From an uncultured Methylomirabilota bacterium (GTDB lineage: Bacteria; Methylomirabilota; Methylomirabilia; Methylomirabilales; 2-02-FULL-66-22), in NCBI GenBank assembly GCA_963845565.1, contig CAWJSJ010000002.1:384001-448000 (forward strand): 64,000 bases of DNA, given 5' to 3'. Every line of letters begins with the position of its first letter. Within the stretch, counting starts at the first letter, position 1. The notes under the pieces were generated by a model, which did not search any database, was not told where the DNA came from, and worked only from the letters and a program-made list of their open reading frames with translations. A program made the position numbers and the translations under genes. Shown here piece after piece: positions 10,619 to 54,183 of the stretch.

Positions 10619-10628
10619 ATCGGTCTCC

Positions 10629-32960: not shown

Positions 32961-34460
32961 CTACTTCTGCTCCAGGGCGGCAAACAGGCTGGCCTCTCCG
33001 CGCTTGAGGAGCACGAGGAGGGATCCGCCCTCCGCCTTCTGCGCCAGGGCCTGCGCCTCGGTAACGGAGGTCACCTTGTGGCGGTTCACCTCGAGGATGA
33101 CATCACCCGCCCGAAGGCCGGCCCGTTCGGCCGGGCTGTCGGGCTTCACGCCTGCCACCAGCACGCCTTCACCGGCGGCCACGCCGGCTCGCTGCGCCGT
33201 CCGGGCGTCCAGGTCGCGGAGCGCCAGGCCCCACTTGCCCTGGGCCGGCTCTGCCTGGCTGCCCTTCTCGGTCTCGGCGCGCTCCCCCGGCATCCGCCCG
33301 ACCTTCACGGACAGGGTCTGGTCGGAGCCATTGCGCACGATTTTCACGGGGACCGACTTGTCAACCGGCGTCTCCGCCACGAGGGCCGGCAGGTTCCCCA
33401 CCTCCGTCACGCCCTTACCGTCGAAACTCACGATCACGTCGCCGCGCTTGATGCCGGCCGCCTCAGCCGGGCCGCCCTTGGTCACGTCCGCCACCAGGGC
33501 ACCCTTGGCCTCCTTGAGGTTCAAGCTCTTCGTCAGCTCCGGGGTGAGGGGCTGGATGTTCACACCCAGATAGCCGCGAGTCACCGCACCCTTGCTCTCC
33601 AGTTGGGGCAGGATCGCCTTGACCATGTTCACGGCCACTGCGAAGCCGATCCCCTGGCCGTTGGGGATGATGGCCGTGTTGATCCCGACCACCTCGCCCT
33701 TCAGGTTGAAGAGCGGCCCGCCCGAGTTACCAGGATTGATCGGGGCGTCCGTCTGGATGAAATCGTCATACGGCCCAGCGCCGATGACCCGATTCTTGGC
33801 GCTGACGATTCCGGCCGTGACCGTATTGCTCAGGCCGAACGGGTTTCCCACCGCCATGACCCCCTCACCGACCCGCAGCCGCTCCGAGTCGCCCAGGCTG
33901 GCCACGGTGAGGGTCTCTTTGGGCTCGATCTTGACCAGGGCGATGTCCGTTTTGGGATCCCGCCCGATGACCTTGGCCGAATACTCCTTCTTGTTGGCGA
34001 GGGTCACTGTGACCTCTGTGGCGCCCTCGACCACGTGGTTGTTGGTCACGACGTGCCCGTCTTTGCTGATGATGAAGCCGCTCCCCGCCCCCTGCTGTCG
34101 ATGCTCCCGGGGCGCCTGCGGCATCTGCCCCTCGAAGAACTTGTCCATGAAGTCACCGAAGGGAGAATTCTGTCCAGGCTCTTCTGGTCTCATGAAGTTT
34201 CGACCGCCGGTTCGTTCCACCTTGGTGACCTTGATGTTCACGACACTGTTCCCTACCTGTTCCACCAGATCCGCGAGATCAGACGAAGCCGCGGCCCGCG
34301 CCGCGACCGCAGGCGCGACCGCGCTGCCGATCGCCCCGGCAGGGGTCAGTTTTCCACCGGCCAACCCCGCGCCTAACCCGCTCCCCACCAGGAGCGCGGC
34401 TGCCACAACGATCATGACGCCCTTCCGGGCCATTGCCCATTGCTTGCCCATCTGCCACAT
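32961..34460 (-). CDS. htrA: DegP/HtrA (Do family) serine protease with two PDZ domains
   Basis: GSGFII, TNNHVV, DIAL and QTDAPINPGNSGGPL motifs; GGAGG RBS. Confidence 0.95.
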   Translation of the reverse strand: MWQMGKQWAMARKGVMIVVAAALLVGSGLGAGLAGGKLTPAGAIGSAVAPAVAARAAASSDLADLVEQVGNSVVNIKVTKVERTGGRNFMRPEEPGQNSPFGDFMDKFFEGQMPQAPREHRQQGAGSGFIISKDGHVVTNNHVVEGATEVTVTLANKKEYSAKVIGRDPKTDIALVKIEPKETLTVASLGDSERLRVGEGVMAVGNPFGLSNTVTAGIVSAKNRVIGAGPYDDFIQTDAPINPGNSGGPLFNLKGEVVGINTAIIPNGQGIGFAVAVNMVKAILPQLESKGAVTRGYLGVNIQPLTPELTKSLNLKEAKGALVADVTKGGPAEAAGIKRGDVIVSFDGKGVTEVGNLPALVAETPVDKSVPVKIVRNGSDQTLSVKVGRMPGERAETEKGSQAEPAQGKWGLALRDLDARTAQRAGVAAGEGVLVAGVKPDSPAERAGLRAGDVILEVNRHKVTSVTEAQALAQKAEGGSLLVLLKRGEASLFAALEQK

Positions 34461-34627: not shown

Positions 34628-34715
34628 AGCTGTTGTCGCCCCTCTTCTGCCCGGGCCCCTGCGGATCTCCCCCTTTGCGCCTTCGTTCGCCCTGCCTCGA
34701 TTCGCAGCGGCGCTC
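34628..34715 (+). repeat. Direct repeat family 3, copy A
   Basis: AGCTGTTGTCGCCCCTC...CCCTTTGCGCCTTCGTTCGCCCTGCCTCGATTCGCAGCGGCGCTC. Confidence 0.9.
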
Positions 34716-34847
34716 TCTTCTTTCCCGTTGGCAGCCGTGTCTGGGGTGTCGGATACTCCCCCGCATCCCGCGGGTGCGGGGCGGCCGGCGCCCCGATCAT
34801 CGCGCGGACCCCGAAAAGCAAAGTCCTATCACTCATTCTCCTGGTGG

Positions 34848-35645
34848 TCACGCCACCAAGCCCACGCGGCGCAAGAACGCCGCGTCTTTCTCCATGCCGG
34901 GCGCCATTTCGTCCGGAAGGTTGTGCGGCTCAAGGGAGATCGGCCCCGCATACCCGTCCTGCCGAAGCCGATCCGCGAGACCCGTCCAGTTCACCGCCCC
35001 GGTCCCTAACGGCACGCAGATTACGTTTCCCCCTGCTCGATGGAGGACCCGCTTCTGGTCCCCGTGCACTTGCGGGAGGTACCGGGCGGAGTCCTTCGCA
35101 TGCATGTGGAAGATGTGCGCTTTCACGAGCTCGTAGGCATAGGGAAACCCCTCAACCCCCGCGTTGTAGTAGTTGTCGGGGTCGTAGTTGACGCCGAGCC
35201 GGGGATGATCTACCGCCCGGACGATAGCCAGGAGATCCTCAGGCTGCCTGGTCATGCGAATAACTTGGTTCTCCATCGCGATCCGGATGTGTGCATAATC
35301 GGACTGCTCCAAGAGTTCGCACACCATGCGCCGGAAGGCCTCCAGGCTGCCCGCGCGGCTCATGTCTGCCCGCTCCACCGCGTCATCGAACACAACAACG
35401 ATCGGAGACTCGATCATCTGGGCGACCTTCATGGCTGCGGCGAGCTCCGAGGTGGCACAGTTGACGTGGATACCCAGGCCGCGCTCCACGAGTTCGCGGC
35501 GAACTCGCTCGTTTCCATCCCGCGCGATCCGCGACACGGCCAACTCCACGAATCGAGCTTTCAGCGCCGCCGCGAGCTCGCAGATCTTCTCCACCGGCCA
35601 GTGCGGGTATTCCCCTCCATTGATACCGAGCGGACTGAGCGCCAT
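34848..35645 (-). CDS. Sugar phosphate isomerase/epimerase
   Basis: IAMEN, YDPDN, HMHAKD, PLGTGAVNW and ISLEPH motifs. Confidence 0.85.
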   Translation of the reverse strand: MALSPLGINGGEYPHWPVEKICELAAALKARFVELAVSRIARDGNERVRRELVERGLGIHVNCATSELAAAMKVAQMIESPIVVVFDDAVERADMSRAGSLEAFRRMVCELLEQSDYAHIRIAMENQVIRMTRQPEDLLAIVRAVDHPRLGVNYDPDNYYNAGVEGFPYAYELVKAHIFHMHAKDSARYLPQVHGDQKRVLHRAGGNVICVPLGTGAVNWTGLADRLRQDGYAGPISLEPHNLPDEMAPGMEKDAAFLRRVGLVA

Positions 35646-35895
35646 GTGCGTCTCCTTTTTCCAGGCATGGAGTTCAAGGGCCTCAGGAGTCTACCATCCC
35701 ACCTGCTCGTTGACCGTCGCCCCACGAGGGCGCTCCACCGACAACGACATCATCCCGCGCGTGCGTGCTGGCCCTCCCACCTCGGCGGTGCGTCCCAATT
35801 CGGGGTTCAGAAGATTCGGCAGGCATCTCCGAGACTCTGGAATCCGAAGAGGCATGGGGCCTCATGAGAGCTCCCCTTCCGGGGCAGACCAAGGC

Positions 35896-36864
35896 CTAGC
35901 CATTCTTCGTGTACAGATGGCAGGCAACCCAATGGTCCGGTTCGATCTCGACGAGGTCCGGGTCGACCTGACCGCAGATCTCCATGGCCTGTGGACAGCG
36001 CATCTGGAAACGGCAGCGCGGCGGCGGGTCCAGGGGGCTGGGCACGTCGCCAACGAGCGCGGGAGGCCGTGGCGGGGCATCGGGGTCAGCCACTGGGGCC
36101 GACGCGAGCAAGCCTTGAGTGTACGGGTGGAGCGGACTCGCGTAGAGCGCGCCACTCGGCGCCACCTCCATGATCCGCCCCAGGTACATCACCGCGACCC
36201 GTGTGCTGAAGTGTTCGACCACGGCGAGGTTGTGGGCAATGAACAGGTACGTCAACCCGAGAGATCCGCTGAGGTCCGCCATCAGGTTCAGGATCTGCGC
36301 CTGGATCGACACGTCCAGCGAGGACACCGGCTCGTCGGCGATGATGAAATCGGGGTTGAGGGCCAATGCGCGAGCAATGGCCACTCGCTGGGCCTGTCCG
36401 CCTGAGAGCTGATGGGGATAGCGTCGCGCATGATCGAGGTCCAACCCCACCAAACGGAGAAGCTCGGCGACGCGCTCCCTCCGCTCGGCCTTGGAGCCGA
36501 CGCCGTGAATATCCAGTGGGTCACGGATGGCCTGGCCAATGGCAACTCGTGGGTCAAGCGAGCCATGCGGGTTCTGGAAGATGATCTGCATGCGGCGGCG
36601 AAGACGCCGCATGGCGTCTCCGGGCAATGCTGTGAGATCCTGTCCATCGAAAAGAACGCGCCCCGAGGTCGGTTTCTCCAGGTGAAGGATCGCGCGGCCC
36701 AGGGTGGATTTGCCACACCCGCTCTCCCCGACCAGGGCGAGGATCTCATTGCGGCGGATCGTCAGGCTGACCCGATCAACCGCGTGGAGGACGGCGCGTC
36801 GGCCCGTCGGCCCGCGAACGGAGAAGAACTTGCACAGATCCTCCGCCGCGACCAGATCTGTCAC
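35896..36864 (-). CDS. Peptide ABC transporter ATPase (OppF/DppF-like)
   Basis: GESGCGKST, YPHQLSGGQ, DEPVSSLD, HPYT and VACH motifs. Confidence 0.92.
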   Translation of the reverse strand: MTDLVAAEDLCKFFSVRGPTGRRAVLHAVDRVSLTIRRNEILALVGESGCGKSTLGRAILHLEKPTSGRVLFDGQDLTALPGDAMRRLRRRMQIIFQNPHGSLDPRVAIGQAIRDPLDIHGVGSKAERRERVAELLRLVGLDLDHARRYPHQLSGGQAQRVAIARALALNPDFIIADEPVSSLDVSIQAQILNLMADLSGSLGLTYLFIAHNLAVVEHFSTRVAVMYLGRIMEVAPSGALYASPLHPYTQGLLASAPVADPDAPPRPPALVGDVPSPLDPPPRCRFQMRCPQAMEICGQVDPDLVEIEPDHWVACHLYTKNG

Positions 36865-37840
36865 GGTTCCTCCGCCAGGGGGAAATGGCACCGTACCTGG
36901 CGCCCGCCGCCTGCAGACACGAGAAGCGGCTCCTCGGCGCCGCAGCGTGTCTCGGCTCGCGGACACCGAGGTGCAAAGCGGCAGCCCACGGGGAGAGCGC
37001 GGAGGTCCGGGGGTTGACCAGGGATCTGTTCCAGCCTGTCCCGTTTGTGACCGAGGCGCGGCATCGAGTTCAGTAGTCCCGCGGTGTAGGGGTGGCGCGG
37101 TGCCCGGAACAGGTCTCGCGTCCCACTCGATTCCATCACCTGACCGGCGTACATCACGACGACGCGATCGCACATCTGCGCCGTGATGGCCAGATCGTGG
37201 GTGATAAGAATGATGGCCGTTTTCAGTTCCTGGCGGATGGTTCGGAGCAGATCCAGGATCTGCGCTTGCACGCTCACGTCGAGGGCCGTGGTGGGCTCGT
37301 CGGCGATCAGCAACGAAGGTTGACCGGCCAACCCCATGCCGATCATGACTCGCTGGGCCATGCCACCGCTGAATTGGTGGGGATAGGCGCGGATCTGGGA
37401 CTTCGGGCTGGGATCCTCACCCGTTCCAGAACCTCTACGCTGGCAGTCGTGACATTGCCTGTCCGAAGATGAGGATGCGCCCGAAACACCTCAGCGATGT
37501 GGTTCCCCACGGTGAACACGGGATCGAGGGCCGTCATGGGATTCTGGAAGATCATCGCCATCTCGCTTCCCCGCAGAGCCCGGATCTCGCGGTCGGACAT
37601 GGACAGGATGTCTCGTCCCTTGAACAGAATCCGGCCGGCGGCGATGCGACCGGGCGGTCGGACCAGTCGCATCAGCGCGAGGGTGGTGACCGACTTGCCG
37701 CAGCCGCTCTCGCCAACCAGCCCTACGATCTCGCCGCGGGAGACGGTGAAAGAGACACCGTCGGCCGCGCGGACCGCCCCCTGGAGCGTCGGAAACTCAA
37801 CGCGGAGATCGGAGACGTCCAAGAGGATGTCCTCGCGCAT
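36861..37840 (-). CDS. Peptide ABC transporter ATPase (OppD/DppD-like), frameshift near 37400
   Basis: GESGCGKS in 37343..37840; DEPTTALD and GCRFAPRC in 36861..37361. Confidence 0.85.
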
Positions 37841-37844
37841 CCTT

Positions 37845-38756
37845 CTATACCTTCAGGCGCGGATCTAATACATCGCGCAGCCAGTCAGCCACCACGTTGA
37901 TGCTCAACACCGTGAGCGTGATTGCCACTCCGGGAAACGTGACCACCCACCAGGCGCCGCCGAGAAGATAGGTGCGTCCGTCCGCCAGCATGACGCCCCA
38001 ACTGACAGTGGGAGGCTGGATTCCCAGCCCGAGGAACGACAGCGACGATTCCAGCGTGATAATGCCGGCCAGTTCGAGGGAACCTACCACAATCACGGCA
38101 CTCAGAAGATTCGGCAGGACGTGCTGCAGGATGATGCGCCAGTCGCGAGCGCCCATGGCTCGATAGGCCTGGATGAACTCTCGCTCGCGTAGGGAGAGGG
38201 TTTGGCCTCTCGCCAGCCGGGCATACACCACCCATCCGTAGAGTGCCAGGACGAGCACGACGTTTTGGGTGCTGGTCCCAATGACCACGATGATCGCAAT
38301 CGCAAGCAGGACGTACGGGATCGACAGTTGGACATCCGCGATCCGCATGATCCAGTCGTCCACTCGCCCACCGTAGTAGCCGGCCAGGAGCCCGATGGTC
38401 ACCCCGATGGTCCCGGAGATGACGAGCGCGCTGAGGGCGACGATAAGAGAGATTCGTGCGCCGTAGATAACCCTCGAAAGGATGTCCCGCCCCAGTTGAT
38501 CCGTGCCGAGCGGATGCGACCCGTTGCCCCCCAGCATCCATCCGGGAGGCTTGAGGCGCAAAGTGATTTCTTGGTCGTTGGGCTTATGCGGGGCCAGGTA
38601 CGACGGAAACAGGGCACAGATCACGATCATGGCCAGGATCAGGAACGCCAGCAGCACGAGCACATCCCCACTCTGGACGCGCGATAATCGGTGGCCGGTC
38701 ACCGCTCTCACCGCCGCACCGGGCGCCGTGGGGTTGGGCGTTCGCGGTCCGCTCAT
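37845..38756 (-). CDS. Peptide ABC permease (DppC-like)
   Basis: HPLGTDQLGRD, HVLPN and LSFLGLG motifs. Confidence 0.93.
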   Translation of the reverse strand: MSGPRTPNPTAPGAAVRAVTGHRLSRVQSGDVLVLLAFLILAMIVICALFPSYLAPHKPNDQEITLRLKPPGWMLGGNGSHPLGTDQLGRDILSRVIYGARISLIVALSALVISGTIGVTIGLLAGYYGGRVDDWIMRIADVQLSIPYVLLAIAIIVVIGTSTQNVVLVLALYGWVVYARLARGQTLSLREREFIQAYRAMGARDWRIILQHVLPNLLSAVIVVGSLELAGIITLESSLSFLGLGIQPPTVSWGVMLADGRTYLLGGAWWVVTFPGVAITLTVLSINVVADWLRDVLDPRLKV

Positions 38757-39673
38757 GAGTAGCGAATCCTGGGATCGAGAAAGCCGTACAGTAGGTCCAC
38801 CACGAGGTTGAGGGCAATGAACATCCCAGAGGCCAGAACGACGGCGGCCTGGACCACGGGGAAATCCCGCTCGTGGATCGCCATGACGGTGTAGTGACCG
38901 ATTCCCGGCCAGCCGAAGATCGTCTCGGTGATCACCGCGCCGCCCAGCATATAGCCGAACTGCAAGGCCGCAATGGTGACGACCGGGAGCGATGCGTTCT
39001 TGAGGGCGTGCTTGCCCACGACGAGGGCCTCCCAGAGTCCGCGGGCCCTCGCCGCCAGAATGTAGTCCTGGTTCAGCACGTCCACCAGGCTGGAACGCAC
39101 CAGACGGGTGATGCGCGCCAAGGGGTAGAGGGCCAGGGTGGCGGCTGGGAGGATCAGGTGCTGGATCCCGCCAGCCCCGCCGGCCGGCAGCCAGCGGAGA
39201 CCGACCGCGAAGACGAGGATCATGAGAAGGCCCACCCAGAAGATGGGCATCGATTGGCCGACCATGGTGAGCAGCATGAGCATTCGGTCCAGCAGCGACC
39301 CCCTGAACGTCGCCGACACCAAGCCCAGCGGCAGCGACAACGTCAACGCGATGACCAGGGACAGGAGCGCCAGCTGAACGGTGAATCCGACGCGCCGAAG
39401 CACAAGTCGCATGGCGGGCTCGCCGGACCGCAGAGATTTTCCCAGGTCGCCGCGCACCGCTCCCGCGAGGAAACGCGCGTACTGGATCGGCACAGGCTGA
39501 TCGAATCCGAGCTCGTGTCGTAACTGTTCGAGCTCGGTCTGGGCGGCGGGCGTGCCAGCCAGCAGCACCGCGACGGGATCACCGGTCAGATAGAGCAGAC
39601 CGAATACCACCGTGGCCACCGCCCAGTAGGTAATCGCGGCGAGAACAAGACGCCGCCGGAGGTATCGCCACAT
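38753..39673 (-). CDS. Peptide ABC permease (DppB-like)
   Basis: GDLGKS, ARARGL, HALKNA, GAVITETIFGWPG and LDPRI motifs. Confidence 0.93.
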   Translation of the reverse strand: MWRYLRRRLVLAAITYWAVATVVFGLLYLTGDPVAVLLAGTPAAQTELEQLRHELGFDQPVPIQYARFLAGAVRGDLGKSLRSGEPAMRLVLRRVGFTVQLALLSLVIALTLSLPLGLVSATFRGSLLDRMLMLLTMVGQSMPIFWVGLLMILVFAVGLRWLPAGGAGGIQHLILPAATLALYPLARITRLVRSSLVDVLNQDYILAARARGLWEALVVGKHALKNASLPVVTIAALQFGYMLGGAVITETIFGWPGIGHYTVMAIHERDFPVVQAAVVLASGMFIALNLVVDLLYGFLDPRIRYS

Positions 39674-39764
39674 GGAATGCCTTCCTGCTACGGCCAAACC
39701 GCGTTACAAATCGGCGACGCGCTCTTGCCCTTCGGCATTCAGCGGGGTTCCCGCCGCGGCGACA

Positions 39765-39803
39765 CAGGCGAGCCCTCCGGAGATGTCACAGAGGGCTCGC
39801 CTG
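39765..39803 (-). terminator. Intergenic hairpin after the substrate-binding protein gene
   Basis: CAGGCGAGCCCTC / GAGGGCTCGCCTG, perfect 13-bp stem. Confidence 0.55.
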
Positions 39804-39857
39804 GCCTAACGCGGAAACACTCACGCCAGAGAGATCGCCTCACCGGCGGCCTGCACC

Positions 39858-41405
39858 CTACGCAGTCATCGTGGCGAACTGCAGGTGCATCCGCTCGTAC
39901 GGAGTTGGGTTCCACTGCAGCTTCTTGTTGACCCCGTAGATGTGCTCCTCATCGTACAGGAACAACCATGGACAGTACTCGTCCACCACGTACTTCTCGA
40001 ACTCCTGCGCGATGGGGACGCGCTTCGCCGGGTCGACCTCGTGCCGCAGCCGATCCAGCAGGCCGTCCATCTTGTCGTTGTAGGAATACTTGTACAGGCC
40101 CTTGGACCAGAATGGGACCTGCCATTCGTACGACGGGTCCAGCCACAGCGGTCCGACGGACCACATGTTCATTCCGGTGGCTTTCTGCGTGGTGTAGAGC
40201 GACGAGACAGTATTGAACTCGCCACCCTTCTGGTTAAACCGGATGCCGACCTTGGCCGCCATGCCCACGATGGCCGTGGCCACATCCTTGTCATTCAGCC
40301 ACCGCCCGATAGGATGGTTGTAGTCGAGGTCGATCCCATTGGGGTAACCGGCCTGCGTCAGCAGTTTCTTGGCCTGTTCCGGATCGTACTTGTAGCCCAC
40401 CAGCTTCTCCGGTGCATCCCCGATGTAGCCGGGTTTGTTGATCCCCTTCGCTGGGTACGCATGCCCGCCCAAGACGTTCTTGACGATGGAGTCGACGTCG
40501 ATGGCGTAGTTGATGGCCTTCCGCACAAGTGGGTTGTCGGTGGGCGGCACGAAGCAGTTGAAGAAGCAGTAGACGCGGCGCAGGGCCCGGACGGTTCGGA
40601 CGTCGGCCGTCCGCTGGATCCGGCTGATCAACTCGGGAGACACGCCGATGATCAGATCGGCCTCGCCGGTTTCGAGGAGCGCGACCCGGGTCGCCGTCTC
40701 TGGCTGTGCCCGGAAGGTGAGTGCCTGGATCTGTGGCTTGGGGCCCCAATACGTGGGATTGGCCTCGAACTTGATGTGCACGCCTTCTTGCCAGTCGACG
40801 AAACGATAGGGACCACTGCCGATGGGCTTCCTGCCAAAGCGGGCCTTGCCGCCGGACTCGACATAGTACTTGGGGGGCAGGAAAAAGAAAAACGCGGTGG
40901 AAGCCGGCGTGGCCGCGTAGGCCCCTTCAGTCACGATGTCGAAGCTGAGCTTGTCGACCGGGACGACTTCCTTGATGTGCGCCATGAAGGGCGCCGCCAT
41001 CCCCTTGTTGCCCTTGATGGTCTCTATGCTGAACTTGGCGACTTCGGAGTTGATCTCCTCCCCGTTGGAGAACTTGAGGCCCGGCCGGAGGTAGAACCGC
41101 CACCGGTCGGGGGTCTTGCTCTCCCAGCGCTCACACAGGAGCGGCTCCAGCTTCATAACCTTTTGGGCGGCGTCGTACTTATACACCGCCGGCGTTTCGA
41201 GCATGTGGAGGTACAGGTTCCCGGCATTAGCGTTGGTATCCATCGAGGGATCGAGGGACTGGGGCCACGCGGTTTGTACGACCACGACCGGCTTGCCGGG
41301 GGCGGCGGCGGCCCGAGCGCGGCCGGTGTGTCCGGCAATCATCGCCCCACCGGCGCCCATGGCCGTCAAACGAAGAAATTCCCGACGGGTAGTCTTCCTG
41401 CTCAT
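39858..41405 (-). CDS. Family 5 ABC substrate-binding protein with a Tat signal
   Basis: TRREFL, PIGSGPY, VRKAINYAID and YDPEQAKKLL motifs. Confidence 0.92.
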   Translation of the reverse strand: MSRKTTRREFLRLTAMGAGGAMIAGHTGRARAAAAPGKPVVVVQTAWPQSLDPSMDTNANAGNLYLHMLETPAVYKYDAAQKVMKLEPLLCERWESKTPDRWRFYLRPGLKFSNGEEINSEVAKFSIETIKGNKGMAAPFMAHIKEVVPVDKLSFDIVTEGAYAATPASTAFFFFLPPKYYVESGGKARFGRKPIGSGPYRFVDWQEGVHIKFEANPTYWGPKPQIQALTFRAQPETATRVALLETGEADLIIGVSPELISRIQRTADVRTVRALRRVYCFFNCFVPPTDNPLVRKAINYAIDVDSIVKNVLGGHAYPAKGINKPGYIGDAPEKLVGYKYDPEQAKKLLTQAGYPNGIDLDYNHPIGRWLNDKDVATAIVGMAAKVGIRFNQKGGEFNTVSSLYTTQKATGMNMWSVGPLWLDPSYEWQVPFWSKGLYKYSYNDKMDGLLDRLRHEVDPAKRVPIAQEFEKYVVDEYCPWLFLYDEEHIYGVNKKLQWNPTPYERMHLQFATMTA

Positions 41406-41815
41406 CGGCTCCTCCTCTCCCTTTGCGGAACCCGAAAGCGTTGTATCGAGAACAGCGCGTACTCGTCGGCACCGAAGTGTGTTTAGTAACCACCTCCCCT
41501 GCTGGCGTCGCTACACCTATCGGCCAACCGTTGATGCGATCGCACGGAACTCTCGAAGGTCGAGCAGTGGCATGACCCCGGCTGTCGGTCGTCGCCGATC
41601 CCGCCAGGCAGGACCCATTGCCGGGAAGCTGGCGAAGGCGATCGCCCACGGGAGCGATCTCGTCTAGAGACGACAAATCCGTTTCAGATACATCGTCAAG
41701 CCCGGCGGAGAGGGAAACCGCTCGACGCGTGGAGTGTATGCGTGCATGCTGTCCCTTGTCAACGACCAGCGCCAGCGCACCGCCCGTCTGTGCCCGCGCT
41801 CATCGAGAGACACCA

Positions 41816-43407
41816 TTAGCACTCCTCGAGCCCGCCGTCGCCTCTCGGATCGGACGCGCCGCTCGCTTTCCCCGTGTCTTCTCGGATCCACTTCTACCAG
41901 GCACGCCCGGCCGCCGTACAGATCTTCGCGCAACCGGTATCCGCAGAGCTGGAGGTCCTTTCGGACGTCGAGGGGGAAGAAGCCGTCCACCCGCAGCTCT
42001 TTAGGGTCGTTCTCGCAGTGGATACGGGCGCTTGCCACCGCCGCCGAGGGTGAGACGCCGAAATCGACGATGCCGACGATGACGTGGGCCATGGAACTGG
42101 TCTTCCGTCCGCCGTGAGGCGAGCCCAGCGCCATGCGTACCTTGTCATCCTGGAACATGATGGTGGGCCCACCCCCAGATATGGGGCGCTTTCCGGGGAC
42201 AACGGAGTTGACGTGCCCAGGACGGGGATCGAACATCGACATCCCGTTGTTGTACATGAACCCGAGACCGGGAGTCACGACGCCCGAGCCGTAGCACACG
42301 GTGTGAGTCATGCTCACGGCGGACCCTTCATCGTCATAGGTCGTCACCTGAGTCGTGCCGGCGAGAGCAGAGGGCGGAAAGGTTGACCTGCGCGGCACGT
42401 CGCCGATCCGGGCTCTCAGGTCGGCTGCGTGCTCCTTGGATACCAGGAGTTCGAACAGCGAGGGGCTGAAGCCGGGCTCGATAAACCGGGTCCGCTCGGC
42501 GAAGACCAGATACAGGGCGCGGGCCATGAGGTCGTAGTAGGCCGCGGTGCCCTGCCCCAAGGACCGAAGATCGTATCCCTCAAGGACGTTGAGCAACGTG
42601 ATCAGCAGAGCACCAATGGCGGGCGGGGGATCGGTGGCAATGGTTAGTCCACGATAACTGCCCCGGAGGGGTTTCCGTATCTCGGCCCGACACTCGGCGA
42701 GATCGCGAGCCGTGACCGGCGCCCCGTTCCGTGCCAGGTCTTCCGCCATCCTGCACCCGATCTCTCCCGTGTAAAAGTCGTCAGGCCCTGCCGTGGCGAG
42801 GCGTCGAAGGGTGCGCGCCAACTTGGGTTGAACAAGCCGCTCGCCGATGTGATCGACCCGACCGTTGACCGTGAAGACGTCGGCACAAGCCTTCGTGACC
42901 GAGAGCATCCGGGCGCCATCGAACGGACAGGACGTTTGCTGGACGGACGCTCGGCCCGCCAGTACTGATGCATGTAAGGATAGACCGTGAAGCCCTCCTC
43001 CGCGTATCGAATGGCGGGCTGAGGATGGTCGCCCACGAGACGCGGCCGCTGCCGAACGCTTCGAAGGCGGTCTGCGTGCCTCGAACGAATGTGGGGACCA
43101 AGATGGAATCATACCCGAAGAAGATGTCTCCAGGCTGGGCGCCGACGAACATGTCGGGGCGGGCGGCGGATCCGGCCCGGTCGAGGAAATCGACGATCAC
43201 GTTGCGGCCGGTAGGCGCGTGGAAGAGGTTCATCACACCCGTTGCCGCGATGGTTGTCATGGCCGGAGAGACCACGGTCTGCGCGTATGCGGTCGCCAGA
43301 GCCGCGTCGACGGCCGAGCCCCCTTTGCGGAAGATCTCGGCCCCCGCCTCGGCGGCGAGGGGTTCCGGGCATACGACAATTCGGTTCAACGTCCCCTCCC
43401 GGACCAA
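41816..43407 (-). CDS. ggt: Gamma-glutamyltransferase family protein, several frameshifts
   Basis: GGSAVDAALA, AEEGF, GTTQV (Thr nucleophile), GFMYNNGM, PGKRP and terminal GASDPRG spread over three frames. Confidence 0.8.
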
Positions 43408-43480
43408 CCGTGTCCCGACCGCAGTGCGCGCACGATCCGATGGATGACTCGCCGCGCTCTGGGTGCCGCGCGACAGCCTC

Positions 43481-44473
43481 TTATGCTTTCGCGACCCGCT
43501 CGAATTCGGCGAAGACCTCGGCAGGATCGATCGGGCGCTTCACCAGTCCTTGTGCGTACTCCTCCTCGCAGAGGGTCTTGATGAGAGCCCCGTTTGTTTC
43601 CACCCCGTTGGATTGCCAATCGCCTCCGAACATCCGGATGGCCTCTTCGATCTCCTCCTCCATCCATGGGGTCGTCTCTGCCAGGCCTCGTCGCCGCTCC
43701 TGCCACCGCAGCTTGGATCGTTCCAGTGCGCCGTAAAGGCTGCGTGCCACCCAGGGGTAGCGCTCGAAGGTGTCCCGCCGGAGCACGACGATGTGGTGGG
43801 CGGGGTAGATTCCGGTGCGTGCGTAATAGTCCTTCTCGACTCGGCGATAATCTGGATAGAGCCTCACCGTCGGGCCGCCGACCCCGACGTAGCTCCGGGG
43901 GGGCGCCGGGCTCATCATGGCGTCCAGTTCGCCGGACACCAGCATGGCCTCCAGGGTGCGGCCCGGCGGCGTCGGACGCACGTGGGTGGGCAGATCCGTC
44001 TGGGGTTTATGGTGGGCGGCATCGCGACCCGAGTCGTCCATTGGGCCGACCAGCCATTCGATTCGGTCGAGGCTGACCCCCTCCTCTCGGAGCGCTGCCC
44101 GCGTCCACGTGTTGCCCGTGGTCTTCCAGGCATTGAGGCCAATGCGCTTGCCCTCCAAGTCTTTCCCGGACCGCAGGCCGCTGTCGCGCCGCACGTAGAT
44201 GCAGCGATGCCGGAACCCGCGGTAGGCGAAGAAGGGAATCCCGACGAGACCACGCTCGCCTCGCGACAAGCCGATCAGGTAGAGGCTGAAGGAGTACTCC
44301 CCCGCCTCGACTGCCGGACTGGAGAGGAATCGGACCTGGGCCCCGCCACCGGCCATCGTATCCGCCACCCGGTCGAGCGTGAGGGCGATACCCTCGGCAG
44401 CCACATCGCCACAGGCCAGGGGAGCCAGGTAATCATAGTCCTTGCCCACATAGGTGATCGCCACTTCTTGCAC
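43481..44473 (-). CDS. 4,5-dihydroxyphthalate decarboxylase-like / PBP2-fold protein
   Basis: GIPFF..RGFRH..IYV, DLEGKRIG, YYARTGIYP..H and C-terminal QGL..RPI motifs. Confidence 0.75.
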   Translation of the reverse strand: MQEVAITYVGKDYDYLAPLACGDVAAEGIALTLDRVADTMAGGGAQVRFLSSPAVEAGEYSFSLYLIGLSRGERGLVGIPFFAYRGFRHRCIYVRRDSGLRSGKDLEGKRIGLNAWKTTGNTWTRAALREEGVSLDRIEWLVGPMDDSGRDAAHHKPQTDLPTHVRPTPPGRTLEAMLVSGELDAMMSPAPPRSYVGVGGPTVRLYPDYRRVEKDYYARTGIYPAHHIVVLRRDTFERYPWVARSLYGALERSKLRWQERRRGLAETTPWMEEEIEEAIRMFGGDWQSNGVETNGALIKTLCEEEYAQGLVKRPIDPAEVFAEFERVAKA

Positions 44474-44540
44474 GGTATCCCCCTTCCGATGCTGCGGCGA
44501 AAATCCGCGGACAGCATCTATGTGCCGCGCTTGGGTCGGC

Positions 44541-45993
44541 TCAGATTCCCGCATAGTTATAAAGCAGGTCGACGCAGAAGCGTTCGGTTTCGGCCGATCC
44601 CGGCACCTTGCCGTCGCCCTCAACCACATAGAACTCGTTGCTGGTCGCCGCACGGTCTCCATACCCCAGAGCGGAGTTACGCAATGCCGGAATTCCCAGC
44701 GCCTTGGGTATGTGTGCCCAAGGTCCCCCGAAGGCGACCATCGGCCAGATCACCGCGGGATACCCATACGCCTCCAAGGTCTTGAGGGTGGCCTGCACGA
44801 CGTCCGCGTGCGGATCGGTTTGTCCCCAGTTGTAGGCACCGTATACGTGAATGCGAATGTCCCTGAACCCCTCGCGGTCCAAGTGCGCCCGCAACTTGTC
44901 GAGGATCTCCTGGGCATCCATGTCGGTGATCATGCGGAGGTCTAGCGTTGCAACGGCAGAATGCGGCAACAAGAATGATTTGCTGCCTGGGCCGATATAC
45001 CCACTTCGCAGGCCGCTAATATTAATCGAGGGGGCGTACAGGTATTCTTCCAAGACCCGTTTGCCCGTCAGGTCGCCCTTGAAGACTTTGACGGGAGCAC
45101 TGGGTGACAGGCCGGGAATGATCGTGTTGGGATCGCTATCGCCAAAGCGGTCCTGCAGTCTTTGGAGCAATGCGCGCTCTGCGGCCCCGATGGTCTTTCG
45201 TTCGTCAAAGACGTGCTCCAACCCCGGCACCACCAGCCGCGTGCCATCTGGCGTTGTCAACGTGGCAAGGGCATGGATCAGTCGCCACGCCGGACTGTCC
45301 ACAATCGCATTGGTGGCGCTATGCACCGACCCGCCGATGGGGCCGCGTCCCCAGGCGTCACCGCTGGCCTCCAGTTCAAGATAGATCAGCCCCTTGAAAC
45401 CCAGGACGACCGAGACTTCCCCTTTGGCATTTTGCGACGCGCCAGGACTCAGCAGGGCCTGGGCCTCTTTCAGGCGGTCTTTGTACACATCGGCCAGCTT
45501 GAGATAATTACAGCTCCCGAGGATTTCCGCGCCTTCGATCAGGAAGAGGACGTTGACGGGTAACCTGCCCTCGACGGTCTTGATGGACTGCAGAGCGTTC
45601 AGCCATGTCTGCAGCGGACCCTTGGATGCGCGCGCGCCCCGGCCCAGGATCACACGCTTGTACGGAGCCATCTCGACCAGTTCGGCCCCAAAGGGCGGCC
45701 AATCCCATGTCTCGTGACCCACCGGACGGACATCATAATGCGAATAGTACAAGATGGTCTTCTGCGCGCCGCTGTCCAGCCTCCCCCAAACACCCGGATA
45801 GGCATCGCCGACCTCGACCAAAGCGGTTTCCTGGCATCCAACCTCGGCGAGATGCTGGCGGACCAGTTCTGCGCACTCGCGCAGGCCCAGGGTCTCCAAG
45901 CTCACACTCGGCTGCCGGACGAGCTCTCCGGATCTTGCCGGTGTGGGCGTCCAGATGTTGGTCTATGTATTCGTAGATGCGTTGACGCGCCAT
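44541..45993 (-). CDS. M20/M25/M40 metallopeptidase, frameshift near 45910
   Basis: YSHYDVRP, GRGA..SKG, LIEGAEILGS and HSAT motifs; N-terminus MARQRIYEYID is in another frame. Confidence 0.8.
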
Positions 45994-46114
45994 CGGTCGC
46001 CCTCCCTTCGGGGCCGACACGCCCGAATCCGCGCCCATCGGCGATTGGGAGGCCGGCGCGGCCGAGCGAGCGACGTTCCGTGACAGAGTTCTCCCTTCGA
46101 ATGCCCGACTCCGG

Positions 46115-47148
46115 TCAATACATAAGGTCCGGATTCAGCACGTTCTGTAACTGCTCTCCGGCCAGATAACGGCGCAGGTTTTCGCAGAACAGATCGGTAA
46201 TCCTTCGGTTTTCCCGGTCGCTTGTGCTGGCCGAATGCGGACTGATGAGCACGTTCGGCATTCCCCAGAGCGGGCTGCCCGGAGGAAGAGGCTCCTCGGT
46301 GAACACATCCAATGCGGCGCCACCTAGGTGGCCGGAACGAAGCGCCTCAACGAGGGCGGACTCATCGACTACAGCGCCACGTGCTGTGTTGATGAAGAAG
46401 GCCCCGCGTGGCAGGGCTGCCAACTCTTTCACGCCGATCAGCTTCTCCGTTTGCGGCGTATGGGGCACCATCAACACGAGAACATCCGTCTGGCGCAACA
46501 TCGCCGGAAGACGGTCGAGATCGTAATAGTGATCCACGATGTCGGGCGAAGATTTCAGGTCGGTGCCGATGACGATCATGCCGAGGGCGCGGCACATGCG
46601 GGCGATCTCTGCCCCACGCGTCCTAGGCCCACGATCGCCAATGTTCGCCCCTCCAGGTCGGTGCCCGCGTACCGCTCCCAATGCCGCCGGGGTTGGGCCC
46701 CGATCATACGCATGGCGCCCTTGTAGTGCATCAGCACTGCCATGATCACAAATTCTGCCAATGGTCTGCGGTGCACGCCGCTGGCCGTTGTCATGATGGT
46801 GTTTGGCATGCGGGTGGCATACCCGTTGTCCTTGACGAGAGGGCCGATCCCCGCACTGGTAGCTTGGATCCATCGCGCATTGGGGGCCAGGTCCGGCAGA
46901 TCCGCCCGATGCGTCGGATCAAAATCGAACAGGATTTCCGCCTGAGCGAGAAGCTTTTGCCAGCGTTGTTCTTGTTCCGGAGTTCGCTGGTAGATGGGGT
47001 CGCCGTTGTGGTCGGCGGCATAGCGCGGAGGGCGCAACAGGTCCGGTTCATAGAGCACGGTGAGTCGGTCATCGACCTGACGGATGCGCGCGACCTGTTC
47101 AGGCTCCAGGTAGCTGCAAATCAAGACCGTGTGCGTGGGTGCGTTCAC
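46115..47148 (-). CDS. D-2-hydroxyacid dehydrogenase, frameshift near 46610
   Basis: WIQATSAG, GLGRVG, INTARG, LDVF..EPLP and ISPHSA motifs. Confidence 0.85.
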
Positions 47149-47648
47149 GAGTTCCTCCCCAAGGTGTTGCGGTTTCTTTTGGGCCTTTTCAGGAAAACAT
47201 ATCACGCTACCGATCAGGCCTGGCGCTTGAGAAATCCCTGAACCGTCGCCGCAGAGGGTTGAAAGACTCGACTGAAAGGAGATGCTCACTGAGAAGAAGA
47301 AGTTGTCGCGGCTCGCCCATGTGTCCTGCCTACCTCGCGCCACAAGGCGCTGCGGATCCGGGGGCCACAGCCCAGGACGGGCGTTGAGTATCTGCCGAGC
47401 CCTGCGCACGTGTCAAGCAGGAACCCGTTGAATGCAGAAAGGGGCAGCGCACGGCAAGCCTCCCCAACGGAAACGCCACCGGGCTCCCCGCCATCTCCGT
47501 CCCGACGGTTTCACGAGAACGGGGTGCCCACGGGATTCAGTTCATGGGGAGGCCGTACGACGAGAACGGCATCATCGCGGCGGCCAGCGCGTACAGACCC
47601 TGACCGACTGGCACGCCGGCATCCCCCGGGAACGTTGGAATATCGAGG

Positions 47649-47724
47649 AGCGTGTCGTCGCTTCTGCCCTGGCTCCTGCTGCGCTTTCCCTTTGTGCCTT
47701 CGTTCGCCCCGCCTCGATTCGCAG
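47649..47724 (+). repeat. Direct repeat family 3, copy B
   Basis: Core CCCTTTGTGCCTTCGTTCGCCCCGCCTCGATTCGCA; 35/36 identical to copy C. Confidence 0.9.
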
Positions 47725-47825
47725 GGGAGAGACCAACTTGGCTTTCGCGCCAATTCATCAATGGTTTCGGGTGCTCTAGGCGAGACTCGCACCATTCGTC
47801 CGACTGTTGGCCCTGTGGGGGCAAC

Positions 47826-48890
47826 CTAATTATGAGCGATTTGTTTGAGGAAAACGGGTAACACTCTCTTGTTCTGAGTGATGGTGATCACGCCGTTGCT
47901 TTGCAACCACGTTTCCACCGCCAGACGCCGGGCGGTTTCGGCTTGACGCTGGGTGTGCACCGCCCGGGCCTGAATGAGCGTCCGGGTCAGTTCGTTGATT
48001 GCATCGAAGATCTCCCTTCGCGTGCGACGAGTATACGCCTGCCGCGCTGACCTCGCATCCTGAAACACCCTGCAGGCAACGTGCCCCTCGAGGCAGCGGC
48101 GGGGGCGATGGTTCAGGGCGTGTGCCAACCCCTCCGCCCAGACCTGCACCTGGGACTCCGGGACGGGGCCATGGGCGAGGATCTGCTCCACCAGCGGCGT
48201 TTTCAGTTCCCGGACCGCGCATTCCATCCCGCCGTTGTAGGGCGGGTACTGGGGGGGCGAGTTCAGCGGCAGGACCAGGTAACGGGCCAGGACCTCATCG
48301 ACCGCTCGCTGATTGAGATTGGACCCGTTGTCGCGCTTGAGCACCAGCGGCGGTCCATGCTGCAAGAACAGCTGTTCCAGGCGCACGGCCACGGTTTCTC
48401 CCAAGACCCGCTCGCCTACCCAGGGGGTGAACTTATAGCGCGAGGCGAGATCCTGCACTTGGTGCAGATGCAAGGTGTGGTGGGCGAACCTCGCCAACTC
48501 CGCGTCGTCCAGCGACCAGACCAGGCCGGGAACGTGCCAAGTGATGTGGCGTAATGCGGCCTGGCGCTGCTGGGCCAGCTCCCGCCGCACCGTCTCGGTC
48601 AGCGCCTGCAGCTCGCGCCGGGAGATCTGCGTGTGGTACTGCCGGTACACGGCCCCGACGCCCCGGCTGCGCTGGCGGCCATGGTGCAGGCCGTACAAGT
48701 CCCCGTGCAGCTCCTCCAGGGTCAGGGGCGCCACCTTCTTGGGACCCGGCCGGAAGACGGCCGGCTGGCCACGCTCCAGGCGGTGCTTCCACCGCCGGAA
48801 GCTCCCATACGGCACCCCCAGGAATCGGCAGAGGCGTCGGTACGGCCAGCGCACCTGGCGCTTCAGTTGGGTCAGGGTCGTCACCACCAT
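47826..48890 (-). CDS. DDE integrase 2 (IS3 OrfB-like)
   Basis: VWSLDD, QDLASRY, KRDNGS, PPYNGGME and LNHRPR motifs; stop lies inside the left IR. Confidence 0.85.
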   Translation of the reverse strand: MVVTTLTQLKRQVRWPYRRLCRFLGVPYGSFRRWKHRLERGQPAVFRPGPKKVAPLTLEELHGDLYGLHHGRQRSRGVGAVYRQYHTQISRRELQALTETVRRELAQQRQAALRHITWHVPGLVWSLDDAELARFAHHTLHLHQVQDLASRYKFTPWVGERVLGETVAVRLEQLFLQHGPPLVLKRDNGSNLNQRAVDEVLARYLVLPLNSPPQYPPYNGGMECAVRELKTPLVEQILAHGPVPESQVQVWAEGLAHALNHRPRRCLEGHVACRVFQDARSARQAYTRRTRREIFDAINELTRTLIQARAVHTQRQAETARRLAVETWLQSNGVITITQNKRVLPVFLKQIAHN

Positions 48891-48900
48891 GGCGGCCACC

Positions 48901-49237
48901 TCAGGCGTTTTTTTTATCCGGCTGCGCCAACCGCTGCCGGATCCGCTCCGTCTGCTCGCAGGACGTCGAGCTTCGCCTGCAACTCCTGGGTCTGGCGCTG
49001 GAGCGCTGCCTTCTCCGGGTCGAGGGGCCGCGGCGGGCGCCCGTGGTCCCGATTGCCCAGTGCCTTCACCATCGCCGCCAAGGCCCGTCGCTCCCACTTG
49101 TAATACGTCTTGCGGGAGATCCCCAGTTGCCGGGCGGCTTCCTGGGCACTCACCACCCCGCTCCGCACCTGCATGATCAGCTGCGCCCGCTGCCGGGCCA
49201 AGGCTTGCTGGTGAGGGCTGGGTTGCGGATCGCTCAT
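48901..49237 (-). CDS. HTH + coiled-coil protein 2 (OrfA-like), probable 1-nt insertion near 48958
   Basis: GGAGGA RBS, EAARQLGISRKTYYKWE; removing one C gives ...LEQTERIRQRLAQPDKKNA-stop across an A8 run. Confidence 0.75.
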
Positions 49238-50801
49238 CGCGGAATCCTCCTGCCCCGCGGGGATGGTCTACTTGGCCGGCGGCGGGGCTTTCGGTTCCTG
49301 CAGCTTGGCCAGCCGTTTCTCCAGTCTGGCCATGCGGCCCTTCTGCTGCACCGCCTGGCGCGCCAGCAGCCGCTCCAGTTTCGGGCTCAGCGCGGCTCCC
49401 GGTTCGAGGCGCGTCTGCGACTCCAGCGCCTTGAGCATCGCCGCTAGCGCCCGCTCCTCCCAGTGGGAGAGCACCTTCGGGCTGATCGCCAGCTCCTGGC
49501 AGACTTCCGCCGGGCGCCGCCGCTCGGTCCAGATCGACAGCACCGCCTGCACTCGCTGCTGGGCATTGTACGGCAGCGGCTCCTTCTTGGCTTTGATTTC
49601 CGTGCTCATGGGCTCCTCCTTCCAGGTCGTAGGTGACCTCCTGCTGCGGCCGCGGCTCCGCGCCATCGACGAGCATCTTCACTTGGCCCTTCTCGGCCCG
49701 GATCACCACCGATTGCTCACCCATCCGTCCCACCATGTAGAACGGACTGCGCGGTTGCCCCCGCAGCGCCAGTTCCAGCACGTTGTCCTGAATGCCGCGC
49801 TCGATGACCTGCCGCAGCTCCTGGGCGATCGCGAAGAAGCGATCGGCCGGGCACAACCCCTCCAGGGACTGATGGGGCCGCCGGTGGTTGTAGTGCTTCA
49901 CCCAGAGCCGGATCCGCTCGCCGGCCGACTCGAAGCTGTCGAACTGCGCGCGCACCAGGAACTCCTCCCAGATGGTTTTCCAGAAGCGTTCGATCTTGCC
50001 CAGCGTCATGGGATGGTGCGGGCGGCTCTTGATGTGGTGCACCCGCTCCTTCCGCAACTCCGCCTCGAACCGGGTGGTCCCGCGCCAGCTCGAGTACTGG
50101 CGGCCCTGATCGGAGAGCATCTCTTTGGGCACGCCGTACTCCGCCACCGCCCGGCGGTACACCTCCAGCACGTGCTCCGCCGTCTGGCTGCGGAACACGT
50201 CCAGCCCCACCACGTAGCGGGAGTGATCGTCGAGAAAGCCGATGAGATAGGCGTTCTTGCCGCCCAGCCGGAAGGTGAAGATGTCGGTCTGCCACATCTG
50301 GTTGGGCGTGGCGCGCTCGAAGAAGCGCGGCTGAGGGGGGTTACGCTGGGGTTTGGGGCGAGGTGTCTTGAGGAGCTGGTGCTCGTGTAAGGTGCGGCGC
50401 ACCGTCTCCCGGCTCACCGGCAGAAACAGCACGCGCCGCAGGAACTGGCTGATTTTCTGGATCCCCACGTCGGGATGGCGCCGCTTGAGGTCGACGACTT
50501 TCGTCTTCACCGCCGGGGCCACTTTCGGCCGCTGACGGTTCGGACGTGTCGGCTTCGACTGCAAGCCCGCTTCCCCCTGGGCGCGGTACACCCTCACCCA
50601 CTTGCCCAACGTACTGTGGCCCACGCCCATTTCGCGGGCGACCTGCTCCACGGGGAAGCCTTCCTCCAGGCATAACTGCACCGCTTTGCGCCGGACCTCG
50701 AACGGGTGGGAGTGAGCGTGCGGACGCGTTGACCGCCGCCCCGCCCCCCGCGGGGGATGAGTCCTCTTCCTCTTCCCTTGACCCTCGCTGATCCGTTCCA
50801 T
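48914..50801 (-). CDS. IS481-like DDE transposase 1 (HTH-HTH-rve) with a long low-complexity tail; 3' end uncertain
   Basis: AAAGGAG RBS; VAREMGVGHSTLGKW, PNQMWQTD, DDHSR, SDQGRQY, GKIERF and YNHRRPHQSL motifs. Confidence 0.85.
49268..49609 (-). CDS. HTH + coiled-coil protein 1
   Basis: AAGGAGGAG RBS; EVCQELAISPKVLSHWEERALAAM. Confidence 0.8.
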   Translation of the reverse strand: MSTEIKAKKEPLPYNAQQRVQAVLSIWTERRRPAEVCQELAISPKVLSHWEERALAAMLKALESQTRLEPGAALSPKLERLLARQAVQQKGRMARLEKRLAKLQEPKAPPPAK

Positions 50802-50897
50802 CGGTAACACTCCTTTCGGTTCCTCCTGGGAACCCCGGCGTTGGAGTGTCACCCGTCTTCCTCAAGGACTTTTGCTCATGATCTGGTCGTTAGCCCA

Positions 50898-50983
50898 AGC
50901 TGTGTCGCCCCTCTGCCCTGGCTCCTGCGGCATGCTCCCCCTTTGTGCCTTCGTTCGCCCCGCCTCGATCCGCAACGGCGCTC
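50898..50983 (+). repeat. Direct repeat family 3, copy C, abutting the right end of the element
   Basis: AGCTGTGTCGCCCCTCTGCCC...CGATCCGCAACGGCGCTC. Confidence 0.9.
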
Positions 50984-51049
50984 GCGCTTGACACCTTTGG
51001 CCGCCTGGGGCATGCTCGCGACGATTCGCTTCGCAGGGGGATACACCGG

Positions 51050-52079
51050 ATGGCCCGAACGATTCGGCAGATCAGGAAGGTCGAGCTGCACCAGCACGTG
51101 GATGGGTCCATCCCACCCCGGACCGTCTGGCGGCTGATGAAGGGCCACGGGCTCAACCCGGTGCCCACGCTCCGCGAGATGCGGCGGCTGCTCCAGCTCC
51201 AGGAGGACGAGACGGGCTCGCTCCTGGCCTACCTGGACAAGTTCCACTATCCGCTCTGGATCACGCAGTTCTACGAGAACATCGACCGCGTGACGCTCGA
51301 TATCGTGGAAGCGGCATACGGCCACGGCGTGCGACTGCTGGAGCTGCGCTATGCGCCGGCGATTCACACCTACGGAGGGCTCACGCCCCGACAGGCGATC
51401 CGGGCCGTCCTCTCGGGCATGAACACGGCGGTCCGGCGCCACCCCGACCTGGAGATCGGCCTCATCATCATCTCCATGCGCCAGCACGGGCCGCACATCG
51501 CCAAGATCATCGCGCGCCAGGCGCTGGCCGAGGCCCAGCACCTGCACGATCGGGCGGGGGTGGTGGGCTTCGATCTTGCGGGGGCGGAGCGGGGCAACCC
51601 GCCCCGGCTGTTCCGCGACGCGTACGAGATCGCGCGGCGAGGCGGTCTTGGCCTCACCGTGCATGCGGGCGAGGACGAGGGGCCGGAGAACATCTGGGAG
51701 GCGATCGATCTCTTGGGCGTCGACCGGATCGGCCATGGTTGCTCAGCCGTGCGGGACCGGAAGCTGCTCCGCCGTCTTGCCCGTGACCGCATCCTGGTGG
51801 AATGCTGCATTGCGTCGAACTATCAGACCGGCGCGGTGGCGCGGGGGACGCCCCACCCGATTCACGCTTTTCTGGAACAGGGGATCCCCGTCGCCATCTG
51901 CACGGATAACACCACGGTGAGCGGAACCGACCAGACCCGCGAGTGCCGGTTTCTTCTCGACCGCCTCACCGTCAAGGAGATCGAGGCGATCCATCGCGAC
52001 GCGACGATATCAGAGCTTCATCCGGCGGGCGGCGGACCTCGTGGAGCGGGGCCGGCGGGCGCCGGCGCCCCGCGCGTGA
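51050..52079 (+). CDS. add: Adenosine deaminase, likely frameshift near 52010
   Basis: ELHQHVDGS, ELRYAP, GFDLAG, HAGE, RIGHG and TDN motifs; TTGACA-17-CATGCT upstream. Confidence 0.88.
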
Positions 52080-53154: not shown

Positions 53155-53211
53155 GCACGCGGCGGGCGCGAGCACGCCCGGTACCCAGGGTTGCCCACAC
53201 GGAGCAAGCCA

Positions 53212-54006: not shown

Positions 54007-54043
54007 ACCGCGGCTTGGCTTCCTGGGGAAGCCGGACTCATTC

Positions 54044-54148: not shown

Positions 54149-54183
54149 CGAGGATTGCGACCCGCCGACCAACGGGAGGAACC

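Follow-up and report, generated by a model that had tools for sequence, protein, structure and literature searches.

Genomic islets bounded by direct repeats carry attL/attR-type junctions and enter the chromosome by Campbell-type integration. DDE transposases normally leave a target-site duplication (TSD), because both ends of the element attack one staggered site; Tn7, in which TnsA is not a DDE enzyme and TnsC is also present, leaves a TSD of 5 bp. Insertion sequences (ISs) of the IS481 family in strain SBW25 have a 4-bp TSD, and Ngan et al. 2024 (PMC11708052) describe single IS481 and IS5 insertions that lack it, at a duplication and at a deletion, and give adjacent deletion and recombination as the usual causes of a missing TSD. 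The locus described here lies in a 64,000-nucleotide stretch of the genome of an uncultured Methylomirabilota bacterium (assembly GCA_963845565.1, contig CAWJSJ010000002.1, positions 384,001 to 448,000), hereafter the window, to which all coordinates refer. It harbours three imperfect intergenic repeats of about 88 bp, A, B and C, a cargo operon between A and B, and an IS with two transposase genes between B and C.

Repeat A (34628..34715), repeat B (47649..47727) and repeat C (50898..50983) all lie on the plus strand. The original prediction of three co-oriented copies with a common core was correct, the quoted core being present in all three, with pairwise identities of 85-88% (BLAST E at most 4e-15). 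No further copy had been noticed in the window, and a fourth was not found anywhere in the 5,364,654-bp genome by BLAST or with a profile hidden Markov model (HMM) built from six copies; the next-best HMM match reached 8.9 bits (E = 9). The repeat is thus not abundant and scattered, but limited to three copies clustered on one strand inside 16.4 kb, an arrangement with a p of about 7e-6 under random placement. As predicted, the first base of C directly follows the terminal CA of the IS at 50897. The order A, cargo, B, element, C also holds, except that B does not touch the element, from which it is separated by 86 bp (47728-47813). The TGT that had been taken as the start of the repeat is present near the start, but it sits 3-4 bases inside rather than at the edge, and the copy on metagenome contig L130 lacks it.

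Several identities of the repeat were ruled out. A dispersed repeat of the repetitive extragenic palindromic (REP) or miniature inverted-repeat transposable element type does not fit only three copies on a single strand within 16.4 kb, and indels between the copies break the frame of any coding sequence. A structured RNA or riboswitch found no Rfam match at gathering level, apart from two chance eukaryotic matches with E above 1. No stable fold was detected in any of six folds (z-scores -0.63 to 1.37), and no compensatory pairs were found among just six close sequences, a comparison of low power. No tRNA was found there, neither as a fragment nor as a target, and an integron attC array was rejected owing to the missing hairpin and the absence of intI beside the array.

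The empty site that had been predicted, with htrA joined to add via one repeat copy, was found in metagenome contig L131. The flanks of this contig are 98-99% identical to the window: the left one has 5 mismatches over 594 bp, and in the right one 1,987 of 2,001 columns are identical. Its single repeat copy is a hybrid of A and C. To the left of a 7-bp block it differs from A at 2 of 22 positions and from C at 6 of 22, counts that rest on a gappy alignment, and to the right of the block it differs from C at none of 48 positions and from A at 8. Repeat A, the left junction, accordingly has an empty-allele-like 5' half and a divergent 3' half, and repeat C, the right junction, has a divergent 5' half and a 3' half equal to the empty allele. 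The block in which the empty allele changes from A-type to C-type, and in which the crossover would have taken place, corresponds to 34658..34664 in A and, according to the hybrid-allele alignment, to 50924..50930 in C (both plus strand). The offset between the two blocks is 16,266 bp. The same length is skipped in the reads: of 24 read sets listed, four were compared with the window, and two of these (X1 and X3, from two studies) contain a contig that leaves out 16,266 bp, with 34645 joined to 50912. Sets X21-X24 contained hardly any of its sequence words. The hybrid single copy in L131 and this skip identify A and C as the two junctions of an indel. In read set X1 the empty joint has a depth of 15.3 and cargo pieces of about 98% identity have depths of 3.6-6.6; with the skip contig and these lower-depth pieces in the same read set, the filled and empty states may coexist.

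Outside the genome of the window, the repeat was convincing in one of 60 relatives, G009 (E = 6e-26), after three weak BLAST matches (E 0.004-0.009) were set aside. A pattern scan likewise detected it in one of 250 genomes of the phylum once four matches in other genera, with unrelated sequence context and no HMM score, had been removed. It is also present in the two metagenome contigs L130 and L131, was not found in the viral contigs, plasmids or phages searched, and does not occur upstream of add in the other add-bearing members of the genus. Given this narrow occurrence and this absence, the repeat appears to be clade-specific intergenic DNA upstream of the promoter-like motif of add. Repeat A ends 5' of a TTGACA motif. 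A TTGACA-containing promoter-like motif with the G-rich leader of add (50988..51045, plus strand) is common to the add genes of G004 and G005, which lack the repeat; its promoter function is putative, the motif having scored below the threshold of the consensus scan.

The repeat has four left neighbours (htrA, the amidase, the IS, and a flank common to L130 and G009) and, on its right, add, the cargo, a segment X and others, in several left/right combinations. The same repeat with such different neighbours, in the window and in three other genomes or contigs, shows at the level of sequence comparison that junctions have been reshuffled through it, as crossing over there would give. Repeats B and C and the copy of G009 have two diagnostic 5' bases in common. 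Repeat B corresponds to the repeat minus its promoter-like part of about 55 bp, and it is presumably an older internal junction. Upstream of B lies the 3' remnant of an amidase gene (47464..47645, plus strand), 88-93% identical to the end of an amidase gene that is intact in G009. There, a degenerate 5' part of the repeat comes after the gene, just as B comes after the remnant. Downstream of B, segment X (47728..47813, plus strand) is cut off by the IS and is 84% identical over 93 bp to L130, where the order repeat, promoter-like motif, X matches the DNA after B. The amidase-repeat junction is hence common to the window and G009, and the repeat-X junction to the window and L130. Segment X was not found in 200 other genomes of the class.

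On balance, it is probable, if by a modest degree only, that the repeat is clade intergenic DNA upstream of add and that a 16,266-bp block, with A and C as its junctions, entered as a circle by a single host-mediated crossover. The incoming DNA would have been circular, derived from this variable locus in a related strain and already containing B, and one crossover within the short repeat homology, likely in the 7-bp block, would have integrated it. Host recombination, and not a dedicated recombinase, would have carried this out; no tyrosine recombinase was detected in or near the block, as none of the four PF00589 matches in the genome lies in the window and the nearest one on this contig is more than 1 Mb away. 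A composite transposon was ruled out, the cargo not being flanked by two IS copies and the genome having only one.

The direction of the event was probably insertion and not loss. The repeat in L130, which is about 94% identical and lies in a different context, is empty-type in both halves (1 of 22 and 2 of 48 differences). Because L130 carries an empty-type copy elsewhere, the empty allele looks older than the split of about 1% between the genome of the window and L131, which favours insertion. If the filled state were ancestral, through old tandem accretion, a deletion between A and C would yield the same hybrid pattern, and the greater depth of the empty joint in X1 and the divergence of about 13% between A and C would fit this order of events. 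Nonetheless, such an origin is unlikely, given that the empty-type allele is intact in the more distant L130 and that, in the relatives examined, the cargo lies beside neither add nor htrA.

Several observations weigh against the entry of a circle by host-mediated crossover. The switch falls in the 7-bp block although identical blocks of 11 and 14 bp adjoin it, and 88 bp at about 85% identity is a poor substrate for RecA. The 3' half of A differs from G009 at 11 of 48 positions and from the empty allele at 8 of 48; as it is no closer to G009, the donor allele is identified only in part. Three left junctions (htrA, amidase and IS) fall within about 3 bp, a coincidence which the model does not explain. 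No circle junction was present among the joints listed in the read sets, the contigs of which drop rare variants, and the junction from A to the cargo was bridged by no contig among those listed. Moreover, read set X1 may be the source of the window itself. The overlap region of tyrosine recombinases is typically 7 bp, the length of the crossover interval seen here, and the repeat could be the true att site of a site-specific recombinase encoded elsewhere, with the locus as a small cassette array. The reshuffled junctions, with left breakpoints within a few bases, and three full-length tyrosine recombinase domains in the genome are in agreement with this. However, inverted binding arms around the 7-bp block were not found (at most 4 of 11 matches in 27 framings), the repeat shows neither hairpin nor covariation, the recombinase would not be nearby, and the repeat is restricted to one narrow clade, all of which makes a true att site quite unlikely. 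What stands of the predicted att-like character is that A and C behave as att-type junctions; that they serve the element itself is not supported.

The IS next to repeat C (47814..50897, minus strand; 3,084 bp) has imperfect inverted ends of about 52 bp of the form TG..CA and no TSD, and DNA homology to close relatives ends at 47814 and 50897. On the minus strand it encodes Tnp1, an IS481-like DDE transposase according to Pfam and curated models (conserved part, 49620..50801), two small open reading frames (ORFs) with a helix-turn-helix (HTH) motif, and Tnp2, a second rve-type DDE transposase of 354 aa (47826..48890) with conserved D128, D187 and E223. Small HTH ORF 2 (49268..49666) was recognised by domain scan and from relatives, and small HTH ORF 3 (48914..49237) is OrfA-like. 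Tnp1, two HTH ORFs and Tnp2 form the usual layout in 33 relatives, a few of them with broken frames, and the D-D-E triad is kept in at least 90% of the aligned sequences of both transposases (33 and 32 sequences). The Pfam scan detected no ATPase gene in the IS. The family comprises at least 1,006 protein clusters, and databases name Tnp2 only generically.

A 1,008-aa ORF in the window results from one extra base near 48957-48959, in ORF 3, which does not occur in other read sets and is likely an assembly error. Natural 469-aa fusions of the HTH ORF and the rve ORF exist, and an A-rich junction lies between the two; fusions and junction are suggestive of a programmed frameshift that would join OrfA and OrfB. 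In 30 of 33 relatives, the Tnp1 frame is uninterrupted over at least 530 codons and overlaps the small HTH ORFs in another frame; at the protein level, this extended overlap shows poor conservation.

GTDB species genomes were scanned with Tnp1, which confirmed 133 relatives and gave 80 loci from other phyla, many of them on short contigs with limited flanks. Within the genus, the element is present in six of 20 genomes at nine loci, where flanks of 1.5 kb were checked (15 kb for G009). The repeat was found at none of these 89 loci. The BLAST matches in the 80 loci were due to the IS end contained within the query, plus two weak ones at E 0.03, one of which lies in an IS locus, far from the element; the best HMM match there scored 10 bits (E 0.93). 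G009 possesses a 96% identical copy of the element without the repeat, though the repeat occurs on another of its contigs. Since the repeat accompanies none of these element loci and the element has its own TG..CA ends, the repeats are not part of the element.

The original prediction had regarded the repeats as long terminal repeat-like or DDE-type ends of the dual-integrase element, or as its preferred targets, by which cargo would be captured or delivered. The contact of C with the terminal CA and the TGT near the start of A, B and C speak for it. Against it stand the 89 loci, the inverted ends of the element, the occurrence of the repeat without the element beside it in L130, L131 and contig C10 of G009, and a flank preference of the element confined to single bases; we consider this role highly improbable, be it as ends or as targets. 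There was no sign of cargo being captured or delivered by the element via the repeats, and the idea that these are its ends or targets fails the test of co-location with element homologues that had been set beforehand, so that it retains hardly any credibility. The earlier interpretation is thus partly supported, and the observation on which it was built is confirmed.

Target sites were compared in 53 complete copies of the IS. Both ends were recognised in 58 of the 80 loci, from which 12 were dropped because a flank was absent or an end was off TG/CA; the remaining 46 were joined by six genus copies and the copy of the window. The longest exact match between the flanks was 0 bp in 40 copies, 1 bp in ten, 2 bp in two and 3 bp in one, which is the level of chance, and a TSD of 4 bp or more was found in none of the 53. 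Six identical copies in one chromosome show no duplication either, cognate or crosswise. Masking by recombination between copies was rejected, as no cross-pair match longer than 3 bp occurred in seven multi-copy genomes, and so were misplaced ends, as end shifts of -1 to +3 yielded no TSD of at least 4 bp. The repeat is not a long TSD of the IS, B being 86 bp off the IS end and complete relatives showing no long flank duplication within 5 kb. Clean blunt insertion was also rejected: the joined flanks matched no contiguous homologue, save for one 70-bp match of 77% identity.

Frames were scanned in the flanks of 18 copies of the IS (56 of 57 candidate frames). In four copies the genes on both sides were identifiable, and in all four they were truncated genes of unrelated families; one flank could be named in six of the 18, and in no copy did the same family occur on both sides. 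The homologue reaching the junction runs on for at least 106 aa in eight of ten copies, and the missing gene part was recovered on the other flank in one of these eight, a count in which misses are possible, as three flanks measure 1.6 kb or less and the homologues are 29-67% identical. At locus L075, about 27-40 codons are gone at the IS joint with synteny kept, apparently together with most of what we take, from its translation, to be a group II intron. At locus L195, the IS lies between a truncated NYN gene and the final nine codons of another gene, and synteny is preserved to either side. At the Tnp1 end, the flanking bases favour A at -5 (25 of 53) and T at -1 (28 of 53).

Insertion of the IS likely replaces a stretch of target DNA, judging from these flanks. 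It may do so in one step, its two ends being joined to two sites, or insertion may come first and adjacent deletion often follow. At the locus in the window, the IS would touch C because its insertion replaced the DNA between X and C; such replacement of the target would explain why X is cut at one end of the IS and C adjoins the other end.

The IS may also have made the whole structure. Its ends would then have joined two target points, the start of the repeat and the end of X, giving a circle or an arrangement of duplication, IS and duplication, and a later crossover would have taken place between a repeat copy and the chromosome. Such an origin would supply an additional cause for the entry of a circle by crossover, without contradicting its last step. 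It agrees with the start of C at the first base past the IS end and of B at the homologous base, with blocks of 17 bp and 31 bp that are identical between B and C, and with the habit of the IS family to leave no TSD and to sit on joints between different genes. A comparable IS481 copy without TSD, between two copies of a 59,943-bp duplication, is described in PMC11708052. Nevertheless, a search to 5 kb in the complete relatives with flanks revealed no long duplication around the IS, B and C differ at many positions, yet the IS is 96% identical to the G009 copy, and the cargo that follows the repeat at A is left unexplained. We therefore regard an IS-made structure as rather unlikely.

The cargo operon (34848..47241, minus strand, Pfam) encodes a sugar-phosphate isomerase-like TIM barrel protein, a peptide ABC transporter with two ATPases, two permeases and an SBP_bac_5 protein, a gamma-glutamyltranspeptidase, an M20 peptidase and a 2-hydroxyacid dehydrogenase. 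Several of its ORFs are split by frameshifts. Its GC content is 0.60-0.65 over most of the block, and that of the genome is about 0.66. A syntenic homologue, 73-79% identical, is present on contigs C27 and C170 of G006, a genome without the repeat, and the cargo is therefore independent of the repeat. In the relatives examined, it adjoins neither add nor htrA.

On the left, the insert is flanked by an htrA/DegP-like protease gene (32961..34460, minus strand; Pfam Trypsin_2 and PDZ), which is 78% identical to a paralogue elsewhere on contig C2. On the right lies an adenosine deaminase-like add gene (51050..52060, plus strand; Pfam A_deaminase), 99% identical to that of L131. The region 26007-47463, including this htrA, has no orthologue in G009 (91% identical, 76% complete), so that the variable region may exceed the block between A and C. 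Single-base indels at 42944, 47500-47534, 48957-48959 and 52006 split ggt, the amidase remnant, the IS and add; absent from other read sets, they are likely assembly errors.

Other repeats were also observed. A REP-like family of about 105 bp occurs in the window at 7931-8044, 10622-10739, 29117-29234, 29863-29980, 53047-53158 (inverted) and 54037-54154, with many more copies spread over all six contigs. A second dispersed repeat, with inverted ends, lies at 134-279 and 5648-5739 and is abundant genome-wide; a relative of it sits upstream of the repeat in L130. Contig L131 has about 250 extra bases at 53151-53155, matching dispersed repeat DNA elsewhere in the genome of the window. In G009, L008:12500-18700 is a mosaic of gene pieces of 0.6-1.6 kb matching scattered loci of the genome of the window; several pieces are bounded by a short inverted motif, a tRNA-like 3' fragment is present, and one partial and one full copy of the repeat enclose a piece of 2.1 kb. 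An integrative element near the right junction of G009 was set aside, as the match of G009 ends before the recombinase there, which by its translation is presumably XerD-like. In G014, add is flanked by 36-bp direct repeats of 92% identity (L160:5626-5661 and 6802-6837), and the ORF next to them, without a Pfam match, is one that we take to resemble a REP-associated tyrosine transposase.

The repeat-bounded indel is a mapped case of a 16-kb catabolic block gained or lost via 88 bp of imperfect intergenic homology without an integrase of its own, with both alleles apparently within one wetland data set. It is useful but fairly ordinary and does not amount to a new type of system. Of greater interest than the repeats is the IS, a promising candidate for a variant DDE element. 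Two conserved DDE genes and no duplication in 53 copies point either to another chemistry of joining or to adjacent deletion as an obligatory step; if so, the family would often give rise to deletions and rearrangements in bacteria of soil and sediment. We tentatively propose, as a possibility, an undescribed and widespread IS family with two different active DDE transposases and each end joined to its own target, the insertions of which would replace, and sometimes circularise or duplicate, target DNA; here, a 16-kb cargo circle, closed by the IS at the first base of C, would then have recombined into the chromosome. The family would also be a clean system for a question left open in PMC11708052, the origin of TSD-less insertions at rearrangement joints. 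An IS family with two DDE transposases and no TSD was not found in the literature searched, a search that did not extend to subscription papers, supplements or ISfinder, so an earlier description is possible.

Similar to genomic islets with direct repeats, the block has a direct repeat at either end, an empty site in which one hybrid copy is present, and cargo of slightly lower GC content. Unlike these, it has no integrase in or near it and no tRNA target, its repeat is intergenic, with a length of about 88 bp and about 85% identity between copies, and a third copy is internal. Tnp1 resembles IS481 (NF033577), exceeding the 224-bit cut-off in two of three relatives (240.8 and 237.1 bits; the third, 206.4), and the inverted ends of about 50 bp, with a TGT..ACA-like right inverted repeat, are also IS481-like. 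However, the element differs from IS481 by a second DDE gene and two HTH ORFs within one pair of ends, by its length (3.1 versus about 1.3 kb) and by the absence of a TSD. With IS3 (NF033516) it shares the TG..CA ends and the order of an HTH ORF and then an rve ORF, with an A-rich junction between them, but Tnp2 remains below the cut-off of 160 bits (56.1 bits, 27.7 bits and no match), a further transposase is present, and the 3-4 bp TSD of IS3 is missing. As in Tn7, with TnsA and TnsB, there are two catalytic proteins per element; unlike in Tn7, both transposases are rve-type and an ATPase gene is absent. The cases in PMC11708052 are similar in that an IS without TSD lies on a joint of non-adjacent sequences. 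There, this is described as an occasional event of ordinary ISs with a single transposase, whereas here it holds for all 53 copies, which come from several phyla and include six identical ones from a single chromosome.

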